Shown here: positions 2,411 to 25,662 of the stretch, piece after piece
How positions within the stretch are numbered: position 1 is the first letter of the stretch
Layout of the letters: every line of letters begins with the position of its first letter
The notes under the pieces: model-generated
Told to the model about the DNA's origin: nothing
Seen by the model: the letters and a program-made list of their open reading frames with translations, nothing else
Databases searched by the model: none
Translations under genes and position numbers: made by a program
Virus record (IMG/VR): IMGVR_UViG_2698536403_000009
Strand: one strand, 5' to 3'
Origin: a virus
Taxonomy: Duplodnaviria > Heunggongvirae > Uroviricota > Caudoviricetes
Length of the DNA stretch: 25,897 nt

Positions 2411-2600
2411 ACTGCAGGTGCTGCGTCAGGCGCGCCTTGATTTATTAACCGGTAAACGGGTGGTGTCTGTCCAGAAAGATGGTCGCAGAATTGAATATAC
2501 GGCAGCTTCTCTGGATGAGCTTAACCGGGCGATCAATGATGCGGAGTCGGTACTGGGGACAACCCGCCGTCGCCGTCGTCCGCTGGGAGTGAGGTTATGA
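2394..2600 (+). CDS. W: Head-tail joining / head completion protein W
   Basis: 68 aa, LLTGKRVVSVQKDGRRIEYTAASL matches lambda gpW; GGAGG RBS; overlaps A stop and B start. Confidence 0.9.
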   Translation: MVTVAELQVLRQARLDLLTGKRVVSVQKDGRRIEYTAASLDELNRAINDAESVLGTTRRRRRPLGVRL

Positions 2601-4189
2601 AACGAACGCCTGTCCTGATTGATGTGAACGGCGTTCCGCTTCGGGAGAGCCTCAGCTACAACGGTGGCGGTGCAGGATTTGGCGGGCAAATGGCAGAGTG
2701 GTTGCCACCCTCGCAGAGTGCCGATGCGGCCCTGCTGCCCGCGTTGCGTCTGGGGAATGCCCGTGCAGATGATCTGGTGCGCAATAACGGAATAGCGGCC
2801 AATGCGGTGGCCCTGCATAAGGATCACATTGTCGGGCATATGTTTCTGATTAGCTACCGTCCGAACTGGCGCTGGCTGGGGATGCGGGAGACCGCGGCAA
2901 AAAGTTTTGTCGATGAGGTGGAGGCGGCCTGGTCAGAATACGCAGAAGGGATGTTTGGTGAGATCGACGTGGAAGGGAAACGCACGTTTACGGAATTTAT
3001 CCGTGAAGGTGTGGGCGTTCATGCGTTTAACGGCGAAATCTTTGTGCAGCCGGTCTGGGATACGGAGAGTACGCAACTGTTTCGTACGCGTTTTAAAGCC
3101 GTGAGTCCGAAACGGGTGGACACGCCAGGACACGGTATCGGGAACCGTTTTCTGCGGGCCGGTGTGGAGGTCGATCGATATGGCCGTGCCGTTGCGTACC
3201 ATATCTGTGAGGATGATTTTCCTCGCTCCGGGAGTGGACGATGGGAACGGATCCCGCGTGAACTACCCACCGGGCGTCCGGCCATGCTGCATATTTTCGA
3301 GCCGGTGGAGGACGGGCAGACCCGTGGAGCCAATCAGTTTTACAGCGTTATGGAACGGCTGAAGATGCTGGATTCCCTGCAGGCAACACAGCTTCAGTCG
3401 GCCATAGTGAAGGCGATGTATGCAGCGACGATTGAAAGTGACCTTGATACCGAAAAGGCCTTTGAATATATCGCCGGTGCGCCGCAGGGGCAGAAGGATA
3501 ATCCGCTTATTAATATTCTGGAGAAGTTCTCCACCTGGTATGACACGAATAGCGTGACGCTGGGCGGTGTCAAAATTCCGCACCTTTTCCCCGGTGATGA
3601 TCTGAAACTTCAGACCGCGCAGGATTCAGACAATGGATTTTCGGCGCTTGAACAGGCGCTGCTGCGGTATATCGCCGCCGGTCTTGGCGTTTCCTACGAA
3701 CAGTTGTCCCGTGATTACTCGAAGGTCAGTTATTCAAGTGCCCGCGCATCCGCCAATGAGTCGTGGCGCTATTTTATGGGGCGGCGAAAATTTATTGCGT
3801 CCCGGCTGGCCACGCAGATGTTTTCCTGCTGGCTGGAAGAGGCACTTCTTCGGGGGATTATTCGTCCGCCACGGGCACGTTTTGATTTTTATCAGGCGCG
3901 ATCAGCCTGGTCACGGGCTGAGTGGATTGGAGCCGGAAGAATGGCCATTGACGGGCTCAAGGAGGTTCAGGAATCAGTGATGCGCATTGAGGCCGGACTG
4001 AGCACGTATGAGAAAGAGCTGGCGCTGATGGGCGAGGATTATCAGGACATTTTCCGCCAGCAGGTCAGGGAATCTGCAGAGCGGGAAAAAGCCGGACTCT
4101 CACGTCCGGTGTGGATAGCGCAGGCGTATCAGCAGCAGATAGCGGAGAGTCGCAGGCCGGAAGAGGAGACAACACCACGTGAGACGTAA
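2597..4189 (+). CDS. B: Portal protein
   Basis: 530 aa, similar to lambda gpB along its length; ATGA overlap with W. Confidence 0.95.
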   Translation: MKRTPVLIDVNGVPLRESLSYNGGGAGFGGQMAEWLPPSQSADAALLPALRLGNARADDLVRNNGIAANAVALHKDHIVGHMFLISYRPNWRWLGMRETAAKSFVDEVEAAWSEYAEGMFGEIDVEGKRTFTEFIREGVGVHAFNGEIFVQPVWDTESTQLFRTRFKAVSPKRVDTPGHGIGNRFLRAGVEVDRYGRAVAYHICEDDFPRSGSGRWERIPRELPTGRPAMLHIFEPVEDGQTRGANQFYSVMERLKMLDSLQATQLQSAIVKAMYAATIESDLDTEKAFEYIAGAPQGQKDNPLINILEKFSTWYDTNSVTLGGVKIPHLFPGDDLKLQTAQDSDNGFSALEQALLRYIAAGLGVSYEQLSRDYSKVSYSSARASANESWRYFMGRRKFIASRLATQMFSCWLEEALLRGIIRPPRARFDFYQARSAWSRAEWIGAGRMAIDGLKEVQESVMRIEAGLSTYEKELALMGEDYQDIFRQQVRESAEREKAGLSRPVWIAQAYQQQIAESRRPEEETTPRET

Positions 4190-5684
4190 TCTTTCACACA
4201 TTATTGCCGCAGCATTCAATGAACCGCTGCTTCTGGAGCCCGCCTATGCGCGGGTTTTCTTTTGCGCGCTCGGGCGCGAGATGGGGGCAGCAAGTCTTTC
4301 GGTACCACAACAGCAGGTACAGTTTGATGCTCCCGGAATGCTGGCTGAAACGGACGAGTACATGGCCGGAGGTAAACGACCAGCCCGTGTTTACAGGGTG
4401 GTGAACGGTATTGCTGTACTGCCGGTGACCGGCACGCTGGTGCACCGGCTGGGGGGTATGCGGCCATTTTCCGGAATGACAGGCTATGACGGTATTGTCG
4501 CCTGTCTTCAGCAGGCAATGGCGGATAGCCAGGTGCGGGGCGTACTGCTGGACATTGACAGTCCGGGCGGGCAGGCCGCCGGCGCGTTTGACTGCGCTGA
4601 CATGATTTACCGCCTCCGTCAGCAGAAGCCGGTCTGGGCACTGTGCAATGACACGGCCTGTTCTGCAGCCATGCTGCTGGCGTCGGCCTGCTCCCGACGG
4701 CTGGTTACCCAGACATCCCGTATCGGCTCCATTGGCGTGATGATGAGCCATGTCAGCTATGCCGGTCATCTGGCGCAGGCCGGTGTGGATATCACGCTGA
4801 TTTACTCAGGGACGCACAAGGTGGATGGCAATCAGTTTGAAGCCTTACCGGCAGAGGTTCGCCAGGACATGCAGCAGCGCATTGATGCGGCGCGCCGGAT
4901 GTTTGCCGAAAAAGTGGCCATGTTTACCGGTCTGTCTGTTGATGCCGTCACGGGAACAGAGGCCGCCGTTTTTGAAGGTCAGTCCGGCATTGATGCCGGG
5001 CTGGCGGATGAATTAGTCAATGCGTCGGATGCCATCAGTGTGATGGCCACGGCGCTGAACAGTAATGTCAGAGGAGGCACTATGCCGCAATTAACTGCAA
5101 CGGAAGCCGCCGCGCAGGAGAACCAGCGAGTGATGGGGATCCTGACATGCCAGGAAGCGAAAGGACGTGAACAGCTTGCCACGATGCTGGCAGGACAACA
5201 GGGCATGAGCGTTGAACAGGCCCGGGCGATTCTGGCCGCGGCGGCACCGCAGCAGCCGGTGGCATCCGCGCAGAGTGAAGCCGATCGCATTATGGCGTGT
5301 GAAGAAGCGAACGGTCGTGAACAACTGGCGGCAACGCTGGCGGCGATGCCGGAGATGACGGTGGAAAAAGCCCGCCCGATCCTGGCGGCTGCACCACTGG
5401 CGGATGCCGGGCCCTCACTTCGTGATCAGATCATGGCCCTGGATGAGGCAAAAGGGGCAGAAGCGCAGGCTGAAAAACTGGCGGCCTGCCCGGGAATGAC
5501 CGTGGAGAACGCCCGGGCTGTGCTGGCTGCGGGATCAGGTAAGGCCGAACCGGTCTCTGCATCCACAACCGCCTTGTTTGAACATTTCATGGCGAATCAT
5601 TCACCGGCAGCGGTGCGGGGTGGCGTGTCACAGACGTCAGCAGACGGTGATGCGGACGTGAAAATGCTCATGGCCATGCCATGA
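4179..5684 (+). CDS. C: Prohead protease / minor capsid protein C (S49 ClpP-like peptidase domain plus C-terminal scaffold-like repeats)
   Basis: GTG start after GAGGAG RBS; N-terminal two thirds resemble lambda gpC (LEPAYARVFFCAL, GIAVLPV.GTLV, SIGVMMSH, IYSGTHKVDGN); 501 aa versus about 439 aa in lambda because of extra C-terminal repeats. Confidence 0.9.
   Translation: MRRNLSHIIAAAFNEPLLLEPAYARVFFCALGREMGAASLSVPQQQVQFDAPGMLAETDEYMAGGKRPARVYRVVNGIAVLPVTGTLVHRLGGMRPFSGMTGYDGIVACLQQAMADSQVRGVLLDIDSPGGQAAGAFDCADMIYRLRQQKPVWALCNDTACSAAMLLASACSRRLVTQTSRIGSIGVMMSHVSYAGHLAQAGVDITLIYSGTHKVDGNQFEALPAEVRQDMQQRIDAARRMFAEKVAMFTGLSVDAVTGTEAAVFEGQSGIDAGLADELVNASDAISVMATALNSNVRGGTMPQLTATEAAAQENQRVMGILTCQEAKGREQLATMLAGQQGMSVEQARAILAAAAPQQPVASAQSEADRIMACEEANGREQLAATLAAMPEMTVEKARPILAAAPLADAGPSLRDQIMALDEAKGAEAQAEKLAACPGMTVENARAVLAAGSGKAEPVSASTTALFEHFMANHSPAAVRGGVSQTSADGDADVKMLMAMP
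5082..5684 (+). CDS. nu3: Nu3-like scaffolding protein, in-frame internal start within C (copy 1)
   Basis: AGGAGG 5 nt upstream of ATG 5082, in frame with C; lambda Nu3 is produced the same way; contains three tandem ~40-aa repeats (I..GREQLA...GMTVE.AR.ILAA). Confidence 0.55.
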   Translation: MPQLTATEAAAQENQRVMGILTCQEAKGREQLATMLAGQQGMSVEQARAILAAAAPQQPVASAQSEADRIMACEEANGREQLAATLAAMPEMTVEKARPILAAAPLADAGPSLRDQIMALDEAKGAEAQAEKLAACPGMTVENARAVLAAGSGKAEPVSASTTALFEHFMANHSPAAVRGGVSQTSADGDADVKMLMAMP

Positions 5685-5720
5685 AGTCAGTGCTGACCAT
5701 CAATATGAGGTTTTAACAAA

Positions 5721-6068
5721 ATGGTGACGAAAACCATCACTGAACAGCGTGCGGAAGTACGTATTTTTGCCGGTAATGATCCGGCTCATACCGCCACAGG
5801 CAGCAGCGGGATTTCTTCTGCAACACCGGCTCTGACGCCCCTGATGCCGGATGAAGCCACCGGGAAACTGGTGGTCTGGGATGGACAGAAAGCCGGTAGT
5901 GCGGTTGGCATACTGGTACTGCCGCTTGAAGGCACAGAGACGGTGCTGACCTATTACAAGTCGGGGACCTTTGCGACGGAGGCAATCCGCTGGCCTGACA
6001 GTGTGGATGAACACAAAAAGGCAAATGCCTTTGCCGGTACAGCCCTGAGTCACGCGGCTCTGCCGTAA
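5721..6068 (+). CDS. D: Head decoration protein D (copy 1)
   Basis: 115 aa; NDPAHTATG...TPLM...KLVVWDG...GILV...YYKSGTF matches lambda gpD. Confidence 0.9.
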   Translation: MVTKTITEQRAEVRIFAGNDPAHTATGSSGISSATPALTPLMPDEATGKLVVWDGQKAGSAVGILVLPLEGTETVLTYYKSGTFATEAIRWPDSVDEHKKANAFAGTALSHAALP

Positions 6069-6125
6069 CACGTTATCAGGCCACCATGGCGGCCTGACTG
6101 ATTTCTGAATGAAAGGAACTGATTT

Positions 6126-6413
6126 ATGGGATTGTTTACGACCCGCCAGTTACTCGGTTATACCGAACAAAAAGTGAAATTCCGTGCGCTGTTTCTGGAG
6201 CTGTTTTTCCGCCGTACGGTGAATTTCCACACCGAAGAGGTGATGCTGGACAAAATTACCGGAAAAACGCCGGTGGCGGCCTATGTCTCCCCGATCGTTG
6301 AAGGAAAAGTGCTTCGCCATCGCGGTGGTGAAACCCGCGTGTTACGTCCATACTGCTGGACATTGACAGTCCGGGCGGGCAGGCCGCCGGCGCGTTTGAC
6401 TGCGCTGACATGA
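6126..6413 (+). pseudogene. Truncated major capsid gene fragment (E'), first ~75 codons fused out of frame to C sequence
   Basis: First 75 residues identical to the intact E at 7934; homology to E stops at 6349, then the frame runs into C-derived sequence and terminates at 6413. Confidence 0.8.
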
Positions 6414-7492
6414 TTTACCGCCTCCGTCAGCAGAAGCCGGTCTGGGCACTGTGCAATGACACGGCCTGTTCTGCAGCCATGCTGCTGGCGTCGGCCTGCT
6501 CCCGACGGCTGGTTACCCAGACATCCCGTATCGGCTCCATTGGCGTGATGATGAGCCATGTCAGCTATGCCGGTCATCTGGCGCAGGCCGGTGTGGATAT
6601 CACGCTGATTTATGCCGGGGCGCACAAGGTGGATGGCAATCAGTTTGAAGCGTTGCCGGCAGAGGTTCGCCAGGATATGCAGCAGCGGATTGATGCGGCG
6701 CACCGGATGTTTGCCGAAAAAGTGGCGATGTATACCGGGTTGTCTGTGGATGCGGTCACGGGAACAGAGGCCGCCGTTTTTGAAGGTCAGTCCGGCATTG
6801 AGGCCGGGCTGGCGGATGAATTAATCAATGCGTCGGATGCCATCAGTGTGATGGCCACGGCGCTGAACAGTAATGTCAGAGGAGGCACTATGCCGCAATT
6901 AACTGCAACGGAAGCCGCCGTGCAGGAGAACCAGCGAGTGATGGGGATCCTGACATGCCAGGAAGCGAAAGGACGTGAACAGCTTGCCACGATGCTGGCA
7001 GGACAACAGGGCATGAGCGTTGAACAGGCCCGGGCGATTCTGGCCGCGGCGGCACCGCAGCAGCCGGTGGCATCCGCGCAGAGTGAAGCCGATCGCATTA
7101 TGGCGTGTGAAGAAGCGAACGGTCGTGAACAACTGGCGGCAACGCTGGCGGCGATGCCGGAGATGACGGTGGAAAAAGCCCGCCCGATCCTGGCGGCTGC
7201 ACCACTGGCGGATGCCGGGCCCTCACTTCGTGATCAGATCATGGCCCTGGATGAGGCAAAAGGGGCAGAAGCGCAGGCTGAAAAACTGGCGGCCTGCCCG
7301 GGAATGACCGTGGAGAACGCCCGGGCTGTGCTGGCTGCGGGATCAGGTAAGGCCGAACCGGTCTCTGCATCCACAACCGCCTTGTTTGAACATTTCATGG
7401 CGAATCATTCACCGGCAGCGGTGCGGGGTGGCGTGTCACAGACGTCAGCAGACGGTGATGCGGACGTGAAAATGCTCATGGCCATGCCATGA
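6350..7492 (+). pseudogene. 5'-truncated copy of C (lacks N-terminal ~120 codons and its start); contains an intact Nu3-like ORF
   Basis: Homologous to C from codon ~122 onward; no upstream start or RBS in frame (the track ORF 6410 starts at an internal Met). Confidence 0.75.
6890..7492 (+). CDS. nu3: Nu3-like scaffolding protein (copy 2)
   Basis: Same AGGAGG-ATG start as copy 1 at +1808 offset; intact to the stop at 7492. Confidence 0.5.
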   Translation: MPQLTATEAAVQENQRVMGILTCQEAKGREQLATMLAGQQGMSVEQARAILAAAAPQQPVASAQSEADRIMACEEANGREQLAATLAAMPEMTVEKARPILAAAPLADAGPSLRDQIMALDEAKGAEAQAEKLAACPGMTVENARAVLAAGSGKAEPVSASTTALFEHFMANHSPAAVRGGVSQTSADGDADVKMLMAMP

Positions 7493-7528
7493 AGTCAGTG
7501 CTGACCATCAATATGAGGTTTTAACAAA

Positions 7529-7876
7529 ATGGTGACGAAAACCATCACTGAACAGCGTGCGGAAGTACGTATTTTTGCCGGTAATGATCCGGCTCATACC
7601 GCCACAGGCAGCAGCGGGATTTCTTCTGCAACACCGGCTCTGACGCCCCTGATGCCGGATGAAGCCACCGGGAAACTGGTGGTCTGGGATGGACAGAAAG
7701 CCGGTAGTGCGGTTGGCATACTGGTACTGCCGCTTGAAGGCACAGAGACGGTGCTGACCTATTACAAGTCGGGGACCTTTGCGACGGAGGCAATCCGCTG
7801 GCCTGACAGTGTGGATGAACACAAAAAGGCAAATGCCTTTGCCGGTACAGCCCTGAGTCACGCGGCTCTGCCGTAA
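7529..7876 (+). CDS. D: Head decoration protein D (copy 2)
   Basis: Protein identical to copy 1. Confidence 0.85.
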   Translation: MVTKTITEQRAEVRIFAGNDPAHTATGSSGISSATPALTPLMPDEATGKLVVWDGQKAGSAVGILVLPLEGTETVLTYYKSGTFATEAIRWPDSVDEHKKANAFAGTALSHAALP

Positions 7877-7933
7877 CACGTTATCAGGCCACCATGGCGG
7901 CCTGACTGATTTCTGAATGAAAGGAACTGATTT

Positions 7934-8962
7934 ATGGGATTGTTTACGACCCGCCAGTTACTCGGTTATACCGAACAAAAAGTGAAATTCCGTGCGCTGT
8001 TTCTGGAGCTGTTTTTCCGCCGTACGGTGAATTTCCACACCGAAGAGGTGATGCTGGACAAAATTACCGGAAAAACGCCGGTGGCGGCCTATGTCTCCCC
8101 GATCGTTGAAGGAAAAGTGCTTCGCCATCGCGGTGGTGAAACCCGCGTGTTACGTCCGGGCTACGTCAAGCCCAAACACGAATTTAATTACCAGCAGGCG
8201 GTTGAGCGCCTTCCTGGTGAAGATCCGGCTCAGCTGAACGACCCGGCCTACCGTCGTCTGCGTATCATTACCGATAACCTCAAACAGGAAGAGCACGCCA
8301 TTGTCCAGGTGGAAGAAATGCAGGCGGTGAATGCCGTGCTGTATGGCAAATACACCATGGAAGGGGATCAGTTTGACACGGTTGAGGTGGATTTCGGGCG
8401 CTCTGAAGGAAATAACATTGAGCAGGCTGACGGTAAAAAATGGTCTGAGCAGGACCGTGATACGTTTGATCCGACGCATGATATTGACCTCTACTGCGAT
8501 CAGGCCAGCGGCCTTGTGAATATCGCCATTATGGACGGTACGGTCTGGCGTCTGCTGAATGGCTTTAAGCTGTTCCGCGAAAAACTGGATACCCGTCGCG
8601 GCTCAAATTCACAACTCGAAACGGCAGTGAAAGATCTGGGCGCAGTGGTGTCCTTCAAGGGGTATTACGGCGATCTGGCCATTGTGGTGGCGAAAACGTC
8701 TTATGTGGCAGAGGACGGTACCGAAAAACGTTATCTGCCGGAGGGCATGCTGGTGCTGGGGAATACGGCGGCAGAGGGGATTCGTTGCTATGGAGCCATT
8801 AAGGATGCACAGGCGTTGTCTGAAGGAGTGGTGGCTTCTTCCCGTTACCCGAAACACTGGCTGACCGTGGGCGATCCGTCCTGTGAATTCACCATGACGC
8901 AGTCCGCTCCGCTGATGGTGCTGCCGGATCCTGATGAGTTTGTGGTGGTACAGGTGAAATAA
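7934..8962 (+). CDS. E: Major capsid protein E (intact copy)
   Basis: 342 aa; similar to lambda gpE throughout (YVSPIV.G.V...GG, PGYVKPKHE, DPAYRR.RII, RRGSNS.LETAVKDLG, SAPLM.L.DPDEFV); AAGGA RBS. Confidence 0.95.
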   Translation: MGLFTTRQLLGYTEQKVKFRALFLELFFRRTVNFHTEEVMLDKITGKTPVAAYVSPIVEGKVLRHRGGETRVLRPGYVKPKHEFNYQQAVERLPGEDPAQLNDPAYRRLRIITDNLKQEEHAIVQVEEMQAVNAVLYGKYTMEGDQFDTVEVDFGRSEGNNIEQADGKKWSEQDRDTFDPTHDIDLYCDQASGLVNIAIMDGTVWRLLNGFKLFREKLDTRRGSNSQLETAVKDLGAVVSFKGYYGDLAIVVAKTSYVAEDGTEKRYLPEGMLVLGNTAAEGIRCYGAIKDAQALSEGVVASSRYPKHWLTVGDPSCEFTMTQSAPLMVLPDPDEFVVVQVK

Positions 8963-16709: not shown

Positions 16710-17287
16710 ACACGGCAGCGGAAGCCATCCGGGCGCTGTCGTTACAGGTGCCCGGATTTCGCCGTCAGATGAACGAAGGGTGGTACCAGATACGTATTGC
16801 CGGTGATGACACGGCACCGGAGGCGGTGTACGCCCGTCTTCACGAACAGCTGGGTGAGGGAACGGTCATCCACATTGTGCCGCGACTGGCCGGGGCCGGA
16901 AAGGGTGGACTGCAGATTGTGCTGGGGGCGGCAGCCATCGTGGGGTCGTTCTTCACTGCCGGAGGCTCGATGGCGTTATGGGGTACAGCCCTGAGTGCCG
17001 GTGGTTTTTCTGCCACCACGATGCTGTTTTCACTGGGTGCCAGTATGATTCTGGGCGGTGTGGCCCAGATGCTGGCCCCGAAGGCAAAAACACCGGATTA
17101 CCGCGCAACGGATAACGGCAGACAGAACACGTATTTTTCGTCACTGGACAACATGATTGCCCAGGGTAACCCGATGCCGGTGCCTTACGGGGAAATGCTG
17201 GTTGGCTCCCGCCGTATATCCCAGGACATCAGCACCCGTGATGAAGGCGGGGGCGGAACGGTCGTGGTTATCGGGCGACAGGGATAA
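16607..17287 (+). CDS. I: Tail assembly protein I
   Basis: 226 aa; ARICL.GDLQRFGRR, IHIVPR.AGA..GG, NTYFSSLDNM.AQGN as lambda gpI; overlaps K by ~100 bp as in lambda. Confidence 0.9.
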   Translation: MATTNAFCLASPPLARICLHGDLQRFGRRLSLYVNTAAEAIRALSLQVPGFRRQMNEGWYQIRIAGDDTAPEAVYARLHEQLGEGTVIHIVPRLAGAGKGGLQIVLGAAAIVGSFFTAGGSMALWGTALSAGGFSATTMLFSLGASMILGGVAQMLAPKAKTPDYRATDNGRQNTYFSSLDNMIAQGNPMPVPYGEMLVGSRRISQDISTRDEGGGGTVVVIGRQG

Positions 17288-17424: not shown

Positions 17425-17496
17425 AATGTGAAGATATTCAGAATTTTTATGCCATTACCGGTTTTAACCAACAGGATTATCGGTGGGCATGAAAGA

Positions 17497-17530
17497 AAAC
17501 CCCGGTATCTGCTGATACCGGGGTTTCTCT
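17497..17530. terminator. Perfect 13-bp inverted repeat hairpin with U-rich flanks on both strands (bidirectional terminator-like)
   Basis: aaaccccggtatc (17497-17509), loop tgct, gataccggggttt (17514-17526); followed on plus by ctcttt and on minus by tctttc. Confidence 0.5.
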
Positions 17531-17629
17531 TTAGCATGGCAGAAATGTGTTTCATGCTTTTCGGGCGAAGGATATCCGACTTCTGTACGGAATGGCAAGT
17601 GGCGGTTAATTTATTCAGGGGAAGGCTGT

Positions 17630-20600
17630 ATGGGAAAAGGTGGCGGTAAGGCACACACGCCTCGTGAGGCGAAGGATAATCTCAAATCCACGCAGATGAT
17701 GAGCGTGATTGATGCGATTGGTGAGGGACCGATAGAAGGCCCGGTGAAAGGCCTGCAGAGTATTCTGGTGAACAAAACCCCGCTGACGGGCACGGACGGT
17801 AATCCCGTGATACACGGTGTGACCGCGGTCTGGCGTGCCGGGGAGCAGGAGCAGACACCACTGGAAGGCTTTGAGTCCTCCGGAGCTGAAACCGGACTGG
17901 GCGTGGAAGTGACGAAGGCAAAGCCGGTAACGCGCACCATTACATCCGCGAACATTGACCGCCTGCGGGTCACCTTCGGGGTGCAGTCACTGTTGGAGAC
18001 CACCTCAAAGGGCGACCGTAATCCCTCTTCTGTCCGGCTGCTGATTCAGTTGCAGCGTAACGGTAACTGGGTGACGGAAAAGGATGTCACCATTAACGGC
18101 AAGACCACCTCACAGTACCTGGCGTCGGTGATTCTGGATAATCTGCCTCCCCGTCCTTTTAACATCCGGATGGTCCGGGAGACAGCGGACAGCACCCCGG
18201 ACCAGCTGCAGAATAAGACGCTCTGGTCGTCATACACCGAAATCATCGATGTGAAACAGTGCTACCCGAACACGGCGATTGTGGGGCTGCAGGTGGATGC
18301 GGAGCAGTTTGGCGGTCAGCAGATGACGGTGAACTACCATATCCGCGGTCGCATCATCCAGGTGCCGTCAAACTATGACCCGGAAAAACGCACTTACAGC
18401 GGCATCTGGGACGGCAGCCTGAAACCGGCATACAGCAATAACCCGGCCTGGTGTCTGTGGGACATGCTGACCCACCCGCGCTACGGAATGGGAAAACGCC
18501 TGGGGGCGGCGGATGTTGACAAGTGGGCGCTGTATGCCATCGGGCAGTACTGCGACCAGACGGTCCCGGATGGTTTCGGGGGCACAGAGCCGCGGATGAC
18601 CTTTAATGCGTACCTGTCACAACAGCGTAAGGCGTGGGACGTTCTCAGTGATTTCTGCTCGGCGATGCGCTGTATGCCGGTATGGAACGGCCAGACGCTG
18701 ACGTTCGTTCAGGACCGCCCGTCGGATGTGGTGTGGCCGTACACCAACTGCGATGTGGTGGTGGATGATAACGGCGTGGGGTTTCGCTACAGCTTCAGCG
18801 CCCTGAAGGACCGCCACACGGCGGTGGAGGTGAATTACACCGACCCGCAGAACGGCTGGCAGACCTCCACGGAACTGGTGGAAGACCCGGAAGCCATACT
18901 GCGCTACGGGCGCAACCTGCTGAAGATGGATGCGTTCGGTTGCACCAGTCGCGGTCAGGCCCACCGTGCCGGGCTGTGGGTGATAAAGACCGGACTGCTG
19001 GAAACGCAGACGGTGGATTTCACGCTCGGGTCACAGGGGCTGCGTCACACACCCGGTGACATTATTGAAATCTGTGATAACGACTATGCCGGGACCCTGA
19101 CCGGCGGACGTGTCCTGTCCATCGATGCCGCCAGCCGCACCCTGACGCTGGACCGTGAGGTGACACTGCCGGAGACCGGTGCCGCCACGGTGAACCTGAT
19201 TAACGGCAGCGGTAAGCCGGTGAGTGTGGACATCGCCGCACACCCCGCGCCGGACCGGATACAGGTCAGTACCCTGCCTGATGGTGTGGAGACATACGGT
19301 GTATGGGGACTCTCCCTGCCGTCACTGCGTCGTCGCCTGTTCCGCTGTGTCTCCATCCGGGAAAACACGGACGGCACCTTTGCCATCACGGCGGTGCAGC
19401 ACGTACCGGAAAAAGAAGCCATCGTGGATAACGGGGCCAGCTTTGAGCCACTGTCCGGTTCGCTGAACAGCGTCATCCCGCCGGCTGTGCAGCACCTGAC
19501 GGTGGAGGTGAGCGCGGCTGACGGTCAGTATCTGGCGCAGGCGAAATGGGACACGCCGCGGGTGGTGAAGGGTGTGCGCTTCAGTCTGCGCCTGACCAAC
19601 GGAAGCGGAGAAGACAGCCGTCTGGTGACCACCGCCATCACTGCGGATACAGAGCATCGTTTCAGTGGTCTGCCGCTCGGGGAATACACCCTGACAGTCA
19701 GGGCAATTAACAGTTATGGCCAGCAGGGGGAACCGGCCACCACCACGTTCAGGATTAATGCACCTGCGGTACCCGCCACGATTGAGCTGACACCGGGCTA
19801 TTTTCAGATAACAGCGGTCCCGCGTCTTGCGGTGTATGACCCGACGGTACAGTTTGAATTCTGGTTCTCCGAAAAACGCATCACGAACACGGCACAGGTG
19901 GAAAAATCTGCCCGTTATCTGGGGACCGGCAGTCAGTGGACTGTCCAGGGGAGCCGGATTAAGCCGGGGACGGATTTCTGGTTTTATGTGCGCAGCGTCA
20001 ATCTGGTGGGCAAGTCTGCGTTTGTGGAAGCCAGCGGGCAGGCCAGTAATGATGGTGAAGGGTATCTGGAAATTTTCCGGGAAAAAATAGGAAAACTGCA
20101 TCTGGCTCAGGGGCTGTGGGAGCTGATAGACAACAGCCAGCTTGCGGATGAGATGGCGGAGATGAAGACCACCATCACCGAAACCCGCAATGAAATCACA
20201 CAGACGGTCAGTAAAACGCTGGAAGACCAGAGCGCCACCATTCAGCAGATACAGCGCGTGCAGAAGGACACAAATGATGACCTTGCTGCACTTTACATGC
20301 TGAAGGTACAGAAAACAAAAAATGGCATACCCTATGTTGCCGGTATTGGAGCGGGGATTGAGGATACTGATGGCCAGCCCCTGAGCAACATACTGCTGCT
20401 GGCTGACCGTATTGCGATGATTAACCCGGAGGACGGCAACACCACGCCGTTATTTGTGGCGCAGGGGAATCAGCTGTTCATGAACGATGTGTTCCTGAAG
20501 CGGCTGTTTGCGGTGAGTATCACCTCGTCCGGCAATCCCCCGACGTTTTCCCTGACGCCGGAGGGCAGGCTGACCGCAAGAAATGCTGATATCAGCGGTA

Positions 20601-21822: not shown

Positions 21823-21833
21823 GTGGGGTGAAT

Positions 21834-22283
21834 ATGGCAGTAAAGATTTCAGGTGTACTGAAAGACGGCACAGGAAAACCGGTACAGAACTGCACAATCC
21901 AGCTGAAAGCAAAACGTAACAGTACCACGGTGGTGGTGAACACGGTGGCCTCTGAAAATCCGGATGAAGCCGGTCGTTACAGCATGGACGTTGAGTACGG
22001 TCAGTACAGCGTCATTCTGTTGGTGGAGGGCTTCCCGCCGTCACATGCCGGGACCATCACCGTGTATGAAGATTCTCAACCCGGTACGCTGAATGATTTT
22101 CTCGGTGCCATGTCGGAGGATGACGTCCGGCCGGAGGCACTGCGTCGTTTTGAACTGATGGTGGAAGAAGCGGCGCGTCACGCTGAGGAGGCGAAGAAGA
22201 ATGCCGGAGAGGCGGAGACGTCCGCGAGGAATGCCGGCATATCAGCCAGTCAGGCATCAATGCGTCGGATGCCATCAGTGTGA
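21834..22283 (+). pseudogene. stf: Side tail fiber stf, N-terminal fragment (~141 codons of stf then 8 junk codons and stop)
   Basis: MAVKISGVLKDGTGKPVQNCTIQLKA.RNSTTVVVNTV.SENPDEAGRYSMDVEYGQYSVIL nearly identical to lambda Stf N-terminus; homology ends at ~22256 where C-derived sequence begins. Confidence 0.8.
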
Positions 22284-23053
22284 TGGCCACGGCGCTGAAC
22301 AGTAATGTCAGAGGAGGCACTATGCCGCAATTAACTGCAACGGAAGCCGCCGTGCAGGAGAACCAGCGAGTGATGGGGATCCTGACATGCCAGGAAGCGA
22401 AAGGACGTGAACAGCTTGCCACGATGCTGGCAGGGCAACAGGGCATGAGCGTTGAACAGGCCCGGGCGATTCTGGCCGCGGCGGCACCGCAGCAGCCGGT
22501 GGCATCCGCGCAGAGTGAAGCCGATCGCATTATGGCGTGTGAAGAAGCGAACGGTCGTGAACAACTGGCAGTTACGCTGGCGGCGATGCCGGAGATGACG
22601 GTGGAAAAAGCCCGCCCGATCCTGGCTGCTTCACCGCAGGCGAATGCCGGACCATCACTCCGTGATCAGATCATGGCCCTGGATGAGGCAAAAGGGGCTG
22701 AGGCGCAGGCTGAACAGCTGGCTGCCTGCCCGGGAATGACCGTGGAGAGCGCCCGGGCTGTGCTGGCTGCGGGATCAGGTAAGGCAGAACCGGTCTCTGC
22801 ATCCACAACCGCCCTGTTTGAACATTTCATGGCGAACCATTCACCGGCTGCGGTCCAGGGGGGCGTGTCACAGGCGTCAGAAGACGGTGATGCGGACGTG
22901 AAAATGCTCATGGCCATGCCATGAAGTCAGTGCTGAACATCAATACGAGGTTTTAACAATATGGTGACGAAAACCATCACTGAACAGCGTGCGGAAGTAC
23001 ATATTTTTGCCGGTAATGATCCGGCTCACACCGCCACAGGCAGCAGCGGGATT
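22256..23053 (+). repeat. Inserted head-gene cassette (third, diverged copy): last ~22 codons of C, complete Nu3-like ORF with RBS, C-D intergenic, first ~31 codons of D
   Basis: Homology to 5016-5815 / 6824-7623 starts at tcaatgcgtcggatgcc (22256) and ends after ggcagcagcgggatt (23053); roughly 3-5% diverged from copies 1 and 2 (my estimate from protein differences and a few DNA mismatches). Confidence 0.8.
22322..22924 (+). CDS. nu3: Nu3-like scaffolding protein (copy 3, diverged), embedded within the stf locus
   Basis: Intact ORF with AGGAGG RBS; about 10 aa substitutions relative to copies 1 and 2. Confidence 0.5.
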   Translation: MPQLTATEAAVQENQRVMGILTCQEAKGREQLATMLAGQQGMSVEQARAILAAAAPQQPVASAQSEADRIMACEEANGREQLAVTLAAMPEMTVEKARPILAASPQANAGPSLRDQIMALDEAKGAEAQAEQLAACPGMTVESARAVLAAGSGKAEPVSASTTALFEHFMANHSPAAVQGGVSQASEDGDADVKMLMAMP

Positions 23054-23392
23054 CCGCAGCGAAGACATCCGAGACGAACGCGAAAGCGTCGGAAACCAGC
23101 GCAGAATCCTCAAAAACGGCTGCCGCATCGTCCGCCAGTTCGGCGGCGTCATCGGCATCATCTGCGTCTGCTTCAAAAGATGAGGCGACCAGACAGGCGT
23201 CAGCAGCGAAGGGCAGCGCCACGACGGCATCCACGAAGGCGACAGAGGCAGCTGGCAGTGCGACGGCGGCAGCTCAGAGCAAAAGTACGGCGGAATCCGC
23301 GGCAACGCGCGCTGAGACAGCGGCAAAACGGGCAGAGGATATTGCATCCGCCGTGGCGCTTGAGGATGCGAGCACGACGAAAAAGGGGATAG
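22961..23392 (+). pseudogene. D' fragment: first ~31 codons of the head decoration gene fused out of frame to stf sequence (Arg-rich junk tail)
   Basis: [31 protein letters not shown] matches D N-terminus; after 23053 the frame reads stf DNA out of frame. Confidence 0.7.
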
Positions 23393-23979
23393 TTCAGCTC
23401 AGCAGTGCGACTAACAGCACTTCCGAGTCACTGGCGGCAACGCCAAAAGCCGTTAAGGCCGCGTATGAGCTGGCTAACGGGAAATACACCGCACAGGATG
23501 CAACGACAGCACAGAAAGGGATAGTTCAGCTTAGCAACGCGACCAACAGCACATCTGAAATGCTGGCGGCAACGCCAAAGTCGGTAAAGGCAGCCTATGA
23601 CCTTGCTACGGGGTCTGCCGGTGATCATACTCATGGTAATGGTATTCGTTGGCCAGGAGGCGGCGGTTCTGCGTTAGCATTTTATGATGGCGGTGGGTTC
23701 ACTTATGTCCAGGATTCACAGTATCAAGTAAGCCCGGGGACTTCTTCCCGTAGATCGTATTATCAACGTATTCAGACACAGTCAGCAGGTGCTCATACCC
23801 ACTCGCTGTCTGGTACTGCAGCAAGTTCTGGCGCACATGCACATACTGTAGGTATTGGTGCGCATACGCACTCCGTTGCGATTGGTTCACATGGACACAC
23901 CATCACCGTTAACGCTGCTGGTAACGCGGAAAACACCGTCAAAAACATCGCATTTAACTATATTGTGAGGCTTGCATAA
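23053..23979 (+). pseudogene. stf: Side tail fiber stf, C-terminal portion (Ala/Ser-rich shaft plus His-rich tip domain); no start codon of its own upstream of GTG 23353
   Basis: Frame 1 from ~23053 encodes ...[41 protein letters not shown]... and C-terminus [61 protein letters not shown], matching the lambda Stf C-terminus. Confidence 0.8.
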
Positions 23980-24563
23980 TGGCATTCAGAATGAGTGAAC
24001 AAGCACGGACCATAAAAATTTATAATCTGCTGGCCGGAACTAATGAATTTATTGGTGAAGGTGACGCATATATTCCGCCTCATACAGGTCTGCCAGCAAA
24101 CAGTACCGATATTGCACCACCAGATATTCCTGCTGGCTTTGTGGCTGTTTTCAACAGTGATGAGGCATCGTGGCATCTCGTTGAAGACCATCGGGGTAAA
24201 ACGGTTTATGACGTAGCGTCAGGGGACGAGTTATTTATTTCTGAACTCGGTCCGTTACCGGAAAATGTTACCTGGTTATCGCCGGAAGGGGAGTTTCAGA
24301 AGTGGAACGGCACAGCCTGGGTGAAGGATACGGAAGCAGAAAAAATGTTCCGGATCCGGGAGGCGGAAGAAACAAAAAACAACCTGATGCAGGTAGCCAG
24401 TGAGCATATTGCGCCGCTTCAGGATGCTGCAGATCTGGAAATTGCAACGGAGGAAGAAACCTCATTGCTGGAAGCCTGGAAAAAGTATCGGGTGTTGCTG
24501 AACCGTGTTGATACATCAACTGCACCTGATATTGAGTGGCCTACGAACCCTGTCAGGGAGTAA
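23979..24563 (+). CDS. tfa: Tail fiber assembly protein Tfa
   Basis: 194 aa, same size as lambda Tfa; TAATG overlap with stf stop; conserved C-terminal [24 protein letters not shown]. Confidence 0.9.
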
Positions 24564-24612
24564 TCATTGGGATTATGCCGCAGCACGTCTTAAGCAAGAA
24601 CGTGCTGCGGTT
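24402..24612 (+). repeat. Direct repeat (3' end of tfa plus hairpin), left copy
   Basis: About 85% identical to 25451-25662 (gagcatattgcg...gatgctgcagatctggaaattgcaacggaggaagaa...cgtgctgcggtt). Confidence 0.8.
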
Positions 24613-24627
24613 GGATGCTATTTTTTC
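24578..24627 (+). terminator. Hairpin with downstream T-run after tfa (weak terminator-like)
   Basis: 10-bp stem ccgcagcacg/cgtgctgcgg (24578-24587 / 24601-24610), 13-nt loop, then ttggatgctattttttcc; overlaps the 3' end of the minus-strand methyltransferase gene. Confidence 0.35.
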
Positions 24628-25286
24628 CCTGAAGCGGAAAACATTACTACAGTACCTTGAACCTTGGTTTTAACATTCTCGAAATGCTCTGAGAGTATAT
24701 GTGTTAAGCCTTCTTCGGAATCTTTTGTGTTTGAAAAGATGCCTTTCTGATTGTAAATGCGCATCAGTTTTTGACCGAAGCTATTGTGCACAACTCCATC
24801 GCCAAGAATTGTGGCTCCGTATAGAGTTCCATCGTCAGTTAAGGCCTGCGCCGCATTGCGTATTACACAGCTTTTTGTAGATATATTTCCAGGCAGGCAG
24901 TGAAGAAGGTAAAACATGGAAATGGAATCAAATTGACCATGTAACGCCGCGGGATAAGGTTCAAAAACATCATGGCTAATTTTATGTTTAATTTTTGATT
25001 CCCCAGCCCTTGTAGATGCCGCGTTCAGGCTAGCTTCGTTCAAATCCATTAAAGATATCAGACTACTCTCAGGTACGTGAGTAAGGTAAAACCCAGTTCC
25101 AACACCAATATCCAGATGGTTGTTACCTACATGTTCCAGAAAGTGTGGAAGAAGGTGTTCCTTTGTAGGACATCCCCATGCAAGCCGATTTGATACTCCC
25201 AAAACCCACCAGTCATAAAGCTTTAGGGTAAGTGGTGTGTAAATTTTAGCCCCATCATCTGTGTTTTTTTTCATTGATTTCACCAT
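24618..25286 (-). CDS. Class I SAM-dependent methyltransferase (moron; substrate unknown). Likely true start at the second Met (25274) which has a GGTGA RBS
   Basis: Minus-strand ORF of 222 aa; glycine-rich motif I LDIGVGTGFY followed by acidic LMDLN (motif II-like) and DSISMFYLLHCLP; lower GC than flanking phage genes. Confidence 0.75.
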   Translation of the reverse strand: MVKSMKKNTDDGAKIYTPLTLKLYDWWVLGVSNRLAWGCPTKEHLLPHFLEHVGNNHLDIGVGTGFYLTHVPESSLISLMDLNEASLNAASTRAGESKIKHKISHDVFEPYPAALHGQFDSISMFYLLHCLPGNISTKSCVIRNAAQALTDDGTLYGATILGDGVVHNSFGQKLMRIYNQKGIFSNTKDSEEGLTHILSEHFENVKTKVQGTVVMFSASGKK

Positions 25287-25342: not shown

Positions 25343-25612
25343 ATGCTGCCGCAGCATAGCGATATTGAAATAGCCTGGTATGCTTCGATACAGCAGGAGC
25401 CGAATGGCTGGAAGACCGTCACCACACAGTTCTACATCCAGGAATTCAGTGAGTATATTGCGTCACTGCAGGATGCTGTAGATCTGGAAATCGCAACGGA
25501 GGAAGAAAGATCGTTGCTGGAGGCATGGAATAAATATCGGGTATTGTTGAATCGTGTTGATACATCAACTGCACCTGATATTGAGTGGCCTGCAAATCCT
25601 GTCAGGGAGTAA
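25343..25612 (+). CDS. Tfa-like protein fragment (tail fiber assembly C-terminal domain only)
   Basis: 89 aa; C-terminal 50 aa ([48 protein letters not shown]) ~85% identical to the Tfa C-terminus, N-terminal part unrelated; AAGGGG RBS. Confidence 0.65.
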
Positions 25613-25662
25613 TCATTGGGATTATGCCGCAGACACGTCGTATGCAGGAACGTGCTGCGGTT
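25451..25662 (+). repeat. Direct repeat (tfa 3' end plus hairpin), right copy
   Basis: See left copy 24402-24612. Confidence 0.8.

Follow-up and report, generated by a model that had tools for sequence, protein, structure and literature searches.

Three copies of a predicted three-helix module in the scaffold region of a phage 21-type prohead protease gene

We describe here the prohead protease/scaffold gene, equivalent to gene C of phage lambda, carried by the IMG/VR virus record IMGVR_UViG_2698536403_000009 (Caudoviricetes). The whole 25,897-nucleotide (nt) stretch of DNA that was analysed, hereafter the window, corresponds to the late region (head and tail genes) of a lambdoid prophage, and the gene lies at 4179-5684. 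It is very probably an ordinary gene of the phage 21 type, the scaffold part of which is an old three-helix module in triplicate, with a role in protein contacts that we infer. Three modules are the already known, annotated state of phage 21-type head genes, and the triple repeat in itself carries little weight for the window: this is a standard phage 21-type scaffold, annotated three decades ago and present in about one-third of sequenced Escherichia coli.

The identification as a phage 21-type gene is made because of its S49 protease domain, its matches to PHROG families, the portal-C-D-E order of its neighbourhood and its 95.5% identity to phage 21 gp5/gp6. Indeed, the Pfam domain Peptidase_S49 (PF01343) occupies residues 146-293 of C (E-value 5e-35; 121 bits against a cut-off of 24.9), PHROG 53 (head maturation protease) covers the 501-amino-acid (aa) protein end to end (E-value 1e-228), and PHROG scaffold families match the same protein in three stretches. 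The gene is preceded by the portal gene (2597-4189) and followed by the decoration and major capsid genes, as in lambda; the head-gene order terminase - W - portal - C/Nu3 - D - E is present according to the list of open reading frames (ORFs) and the Pfam labels of the source contig. A first-pass annotation, made from the letters of the window, had pointed out an internal AGGAGG-ATG opening an in-frame Nu3-like ORF, and both elements can be read in the sequence (AGGAGG at 5072-5077, ATG at 5082). Their position is that of the annotated ribosome-binding site (RBS) and start of phage 21 gene 6, and lambda nu3 is nested likewise. By inference from the annotation of these two phages, a 200-aa scaffold protein is predicted to be made from this internal start as well.

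The scaffold region opens with a lead-in of about 15 residues, which precedes the first of three modules (R1, R2 and R3; Table 1) joined by short Ala/Pro/Gln-rich linkers, and the motif I-[LM]-x-C-x-E-A-K-G-R-E ... P-G-M-T-V ... I-L-A-A-A-P is present in it. That the C-terminal part of C holds three consecutive related units of about 40 aa, as the first-pass annotation had it, is confirmed by pairwise local alignments: the modules score 81-103 against one another where shuffled sequences average 23-24 (z 12.8-17.9), and 19-22 of 34-36 aligned residues are identical. In the ungapped register, the modules are 50-58% identical to one another; a first MAFFT alignment of the three put in a 3-residue gap, and it is the ungapped register that a 30-sequence alignment supports. 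We also built a hidden Markov model (HMM) from the modules and refined it on homologs. It detects exactly three domains in the window protein (66-76 bits each) and one in lambda gpC (69 bits, residues 360-398), both runs being made with all HMMER filters off; the single module that the first-pass annotation gave for lambda gpC/Nu3 was the right sequence and the right number. After the modules comes a C-terminal tail in which F166 and M170 are nearly invariant in the homolog alignment, and the motifs of which are recognisable in lambda too (ALDRLMQG...DLLNTPV).

Copy number and age of the module

The triple array had been presented as an unusual state of this locus, a view that the comparison with relatives does not sustain, as the array is clade-wide. 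The DNA of 5082-5684 is found at a coverage of at least 80% in 1865 of 5426 complete E. coli genomes (34%); nearly all these matches are at least 95% identical, and a single genome can hold up to five of them. Three modules are also seen in homologs from Escherichia albertii, Shigella flexneri and Trabulsiella guamensis, in Gifsy-1-like proteins of Salmonella, and in distant proteins that are 44-55% identical (P0055, P0066, P0068 and P0076). To place this clade in its family, the whole protein was compared with 1.84 billion representatives of clusters at 50% identity, and 122 of the best 150 matches were at least 400 aa long. Among these 122 full-length representatives, the module is present in 90: 89 have one copy and one (P0096, 59% identical) has three, while none was detected in the remaining 32. 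One module, as in lambda, is the norm across the wider gpC family; three modules are the fixed state of the phage 21/Gifsy-1 clade, which is very abundant in enterobacteria. The possibility that three modules are the common state both in this clade and in lambda is, thus, true of the clade and untrue of lambda.

Copy number does vary among close relatives, and on this point the first-pass annotation was right. Two-module forms (P0013, P0019 and P0022) are in-frame deletions with junctions in register between modules; they are rare, with 1-3 member sequences each. A four-module form also exists in E. coli (P0025, 48 member sequences; also P0079), and the 83-89% mutual identity of modules 2-4 in P0025 indicates a recent local expansion. 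One has to keep in mind that these variants come from a homolog search with the 200-aa query, which returned mostly partial proteins and served to find copy-number variants, not as an unbiased survey; the same search with the module alignment as query returned short fragments only and added nothing. Six close loci were retrieved by a scan of genome contigs with the protease part.

The modules of the window resemble their counterparts by position. R1 shares 78-83% of its residues with the first modules of five other three-module proteins and 64-67% with those of the two most distant ones (P0066 and P0076); it clusters with the first modules of all three-module relatives and with the single modules of lambda-type proteins. 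R2 comes closest to the second modules found in Salmonella homologs (72-78% identity), and R3 to the third modules of the same homologs (56-67% identity, from 56% for P0043 to 67% for P0028). Because the modules match by position across genera, the triplication must predate the split of these lineages, with R1 as the counterpart of the lambda module. At the DNA level, the modules of the window are 55-63% identical, the same codon is used at only 41-47% of identical residues, and Tandem Repeats Finder detects in the window no array of this period; the repeat is thus maintained at the protein level and is neither a recent DNA duplication nor a DNA-level signal. An ancestor of the phage 21/Gifsy-1 clade very probably triplicated the module, and protein-level selection has since preserved every copy in its own position.

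Fold and proposed role of the module

Structure prediction was carried out with AlphaFold2 on the 200-aa scaffold, with 18 homologs, and on a single module, with 30 module sequences. The model of the whole region has three separate helical units (predicted local distance difference test, pLDDT, of about 70-80) and low-confidence linkers, with a predicted template modelling score (pTM) of 0.27, and is consistent with beads on a string; two further helices are placed in the tail with low confidence, at Nu3 residues 160-173 and 190-196. A Foldseek search of the Protein Data Bank (PDB) with this whole-region model was uninformative, given its beads-on-a-string nature. The single module is predicted with a mean pLDDT of 86.6 and a pTM of 0.64, and its helices span model residues 2-14, 22-29 and 36-45. 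In the 30-sequence alignment, the invariant positions are mostly small or hydrophobic core residues, together with the charged EAKGRE turn. The fold recurs in the S49 prohead proteases of Salmonella phage 37, of Synechococcus virus S-ESS1 and of an uncultured siphovirus, which are the only good matches among predicted viral structures (query-normalised TM-score 0.79-0.80, root-mean-square deviation 1.0-1.1 Å, identity 30-42%). Phages of very different hosts thus share the module as a conserved appendage of their S49 prohead proteases. It is a well-conserved and confidently predicted small domain that has no entry in the curated libraries, which makes it a modest target for work on lambda-like head assembly. 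One may go further and see in the ~39-aa module an uncatalogued domain family by which S49 prohead proteases in general, in enterobacterial as well as cyanobacterial phages, would dock in the procapsid, with a copy number that would tune scaffold-capsid valency and hence the rate or fidelity of assembly; we put this forward tentatively and consider it rather unlikely.

Lambda Nu3 is the scaffold of the head and is removed before packaging. Its reported partners are Nu3 itself, the protease C, the portal B and, in two-hybrid assays, the capsid protein E (PMC3224144). The module is most likely a protein-contact unit, the three copies of which would make each chain multivalent. It would hold the scaffold and the protease within the growing procapsid through contacts with the major capsid protein, the portal and/or further scaffold molecules; since both proteins share the module and the tail, these two elements would be an obvious means of bringing protease and scaffold into the procapsid. 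The conserved tail may be a second contact or even the main one. The protease would then break the chain down, possibly within the ILAAAP linkers, which are rich in Ala, although these cleavage sites are speculative, and the chain would leave the shell; the lambda portal is annotated as processed after an Ala.

Could the repeats be explained otherwise? If they were a recent or unstable hypervariable tandem array, generated by slippage or unequal crossing-over, copy number would be strain-specific, and the two-module forms (P0013, P0019, P0022) and the four-module P0025 found among close relatives are what one would then look for. The array of the window does not behave in this way: its modules share only 50-58% of their residues and 55-63% of their nucleotides, with fewer than half of the conserved residues keeping the same codon, each of them is nearer to the Salmonella module of the same position than to its neighbours, and Tandem Repeats Finder sees no array of that period, not to mention that 1865 complete E. 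coli genomes carry the same three-module form and that two-module forms are rare. An unstable array is, for this locus, largely refuted, and we regard it as very improbable. It is extremely improbable that the repeats act as DNA or RNA elements, such as protein-binding sites or RNA structures, of which the protein repetition would be a by-product. The phage 21 record M81255 does annotate the boxes as repeat_region features, under a label (“Tri box, function unknown”) that leaves room for this idea, and a later phage 21 annotation marks matches to the CII-site pattern in the region; these CII sites are, however, bare pattern matches on the opposite strand, the nucleotide identity between modules is about the same as their amino acid identity, synonymous positions have drifted, and the protein fold is kept in phages of unrelated hosts whose DNA differs. 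Nor did we see any nucleotide motif common to the three boxes and retained at synonymous sites between Salmonella and E. coli.

A more serious competitor accepts that the modules matter as protein but makes them passive spacers or oligomerisation units, the tail alone targeting the capsid interior and the number of modules determining only how long or bulky the scaffold is. Lambda and the phage 21/Gifsy-1 clade have the tail motifs in common, the nested scaffolds differ by a single residue in length (201 aa in lambda, 200 aa in the window) though their make-up differs, self-association of Nu3 is reported (PMC3224144), and C-terminal targeting peptides are known in other HK97-fold systems. Within the scaffold region, on the other hand, it is the module and not the tail that is conserved most widely in the family, and the conserved charged EAKGRE patch suggests a specific interface; we hold the spacer explanation to be less likely than not. 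The protein-contact role that we favour has its own weak points. Targeting to the capsid could be the task of the conserved tail and not of the modules, and cleavage in the ILAAAP linkers is a speculation. Lambda gpNu3 is called intrinsically disordered in the title of Medina et al. 2011, as cited in PMC9295703, and the wording of that title fits poorly with a folded module. A sequence search of the PDB with the 200-aa scaffold gave only chance matches to the Lac repressor; Foldseek with the single-module model returned no PDB match with an E-value of at most 0.001 and no scaffold protein among its matches; and no model covers the module in the Pfam and NCBIfam scans.

Extra copies and other rearrangements in the window

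The coordinates of the gene, of its parts and of the related segments are collected in Table 1.

Table 1. Protease/scaffold gene, its modules and related segments of the window.
Feature	Position	Strand	Remarks
C equivalent (phage 21 gene 5)	4179-5684	+	501 aa, GTG start; S49 prohead protease fused to C-terminal scaffold region; from ORF list and translation
Shine-Dalgarno AGGAGG	5072-5077	+	4 nt upstream of in-frame internal ATG at 5082; read from sequence
Nu3-like nested scaffold ORF (phage 21 gene 6 equivalent)	5082-5684	+	200 aa, same frame as C
Module R1 (phage 21 “Tri1 box”)	5127-5243	+	C residues 317-355; HMM 75.8 bits
Module R2 (phage 21 “Tri box”)	5277-5393	+	C residues 367-405; HMM 70.4 bits
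Module R3 (phage 21 “Tri3 box”)	5418-5534	+	C residues 414-452; HMM 65.9 bits
C-terminal tail	5535-5681	+	Conserved helix LFEHFMANH (nt 5559-5600) and terminal DADVKMLMAMP motif
Second copy, middle of C through Nu3 and D to start of E	6351-8157	+	99.0% identical to 4543-6349, no gaps; Nu3-like ORF 6890-7492
Phage 21-type major capsid protein gene	7934-8962		
Third copy, protease end, whole Nu3-like ORF and first ~31 D codons	22257-23053	+	96% identical to 5017-5813; Nu3-like ORF 22322-22924

The first-pass annotation had described the scaffold segment as duplicated and transplanted elsewhere in the window. The segment does recur in the sequence, at 99.0% and 96% identity, the third copy sitting inside the side-tail-fibre (stf) gene; as biology, this description probably does not hold, since the recurrence is most likely a product of assembly. 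The window is identical to its source record (contig CYBH01000014.1 of the draft assembly GCA_001285345.1) except at 6350 and 22256, where the record has an N and the window an A, and these two positions are the exact left edges of the two extra copies. Neither the junction of the second copy nor the arrangement of the third was found in the 5426 complete E. coli genomes or in IMG/VR. Because the copies start at single-N gaps and their junctions occur in no complete E. coli genome, we consider them to be probably scaffolding artefacts, the simplest reading being that a scaffolder joined contigs from two or three near-identical lambdoid prophages of the same genome across 1-N gaps. The substitutions that separate the copies represent natural variation between alleles, phage 21-type residues being present in copies 2 and 3, and the exact protein of the third copy is found in a normal Nu3-D-E context in other assemblies. 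Other contigs encode the 360-aa “C-prime” product, but they begin inside C (L012, L014 and L016) or have another upstream sequence (L013 and L015), and none has an E-to-C junction. We also weighed a genuine tandem duplication or transplant of the Nu3-D segment, but do not hold it to be the most likely reading, given the N that the source record has at both left edges. The copies at 6351-8157 and 22257-23053 should, thus, not be taken as biology by later readers.

The right end of the third copy is of another kind. At 23053/23054, D runs at about codon 31 into the 3' part of stf, with at most 2 nt shared between the two sides, inside a contig and with no N; this join could be a real deletion junction, from D through the 5' part of stf, of a second, defective and mis-scaffolded prophage. 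Compared with an intact tail-fibre gene of 2976 nt in a related prophage (L010, NZ_CP042336.1), the stf of the window, in the region 21828-23979, is without L010 1586-2299 and 2862-3837, and the second of these losses falls between internal repeats of the fibre gene. Within the distal tail-fibre ORF, two direct repeats of about 100-119 nt, 76-80% identical, lie at 23363-23613 and encode repeated peptide units.

Two other repeats were noted. A 216-nt direct repeat, 89% identical, occurs at 24398-24612 and 25447-25662, and corresponds to the 3' end of the tail-fibre assembly gene (tfa) and to a second partial copy of it; the two repeats flank a minus-strand gene (24618-25286) for a methyltransferase dependent on S-adenosylmethionine (SAM), which looks like cargo inserted beside duplicated tfa ends. 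An imperfect palindrome of about 41 nt, 90% self-complementary, lies at 17492-17532, between the I-like gene (ending at 17287) and J (starting at 17630).

Comparison with phage 21, lambda and other scaffolds

A tblastn search of phage genomes with the 200-aa ORF returned 21 records, 20 of them with at least 97% query coverage: E. coli lambdoid phages that are 89-99% identical, and Gifsy-1 at 56.5%. Phage 21 is the reference for the system described here. Its gp5/gp6 (M81255, OL657228) have, like the proteins of the window, 501 aa and a nested 200-aa ORF with the RBS in the same position; the scaffold part is 95.5% identical, the differences being allelic substitutions only, and the gene order portal-C-shp(D)-capsid is that of the window. 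The third copy of the segment (22257-23053) is nearer to the phage 21 allele than the first copy is. M81255 annotates gene 5 (501 aa; head-tail preconnector), the nested gene 6 with its RBS, and, within gene 6, three repeat_region features named “Tri1 box”, “Tri box” and “Tri3 box” with the note “function unknown; putative”, the translations of which are the three modules. The Tri boxes were reportedly first described by Smith and Feiss (Gene, 1993); our account of them follows the GenBank features. In the complete phage 21 genome of 2022 (OL657228; PMC9119081), the two products are named “capsid protease/scaffolding protein” and “scaffolding protein”.

The Gifsy-1-type gpC homologs of Salmonella and those of related enterobacterial prophages share with the window protein the three modules in the same positions and the conserved tail, the scaffold part being 56-66% identical; they differ from it in their linkers and in a longer C-terminal extension (IPGT...). 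Lambda gpC/gpNu3 has the same architecture and gene order with one module, orthologous to R1 (residues 360-398), and a C-terminal tail that resembles that of the window. Identity between lambda and the window is 60% for the protease part, 61% for the portal, 61% for the capsid protein and 49% for D, and falls to 27% for the scaffold part, which has diverged much more than any other part of the head cluster. The single module of lambda follows a Ser/Thr/Ala/Gln-rich stretch of about 70 residues, whereas the three modules of the window follow the short lead-in; despite this different make-up, lambda Nu3 (L003 2633-3238) is only one residue longer than the nested scaffold of the window.

The scaffold of the P22 gp8 type, with its C-terminal helix-turn-helix coat-binding domain, is analogous in function only, as a scaffold that carries a small helical unit close to its C terminus and is removed before the DNA is packaged. 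Neither the PDB sequence search nor Foldseek with the single-module model revealed any likeness to this coat-binding domain. The P22 scaffold is, moreover, recycled and not degraded, and it is not fused to a protease, as the scaffold part of the phage 21-type gene is.

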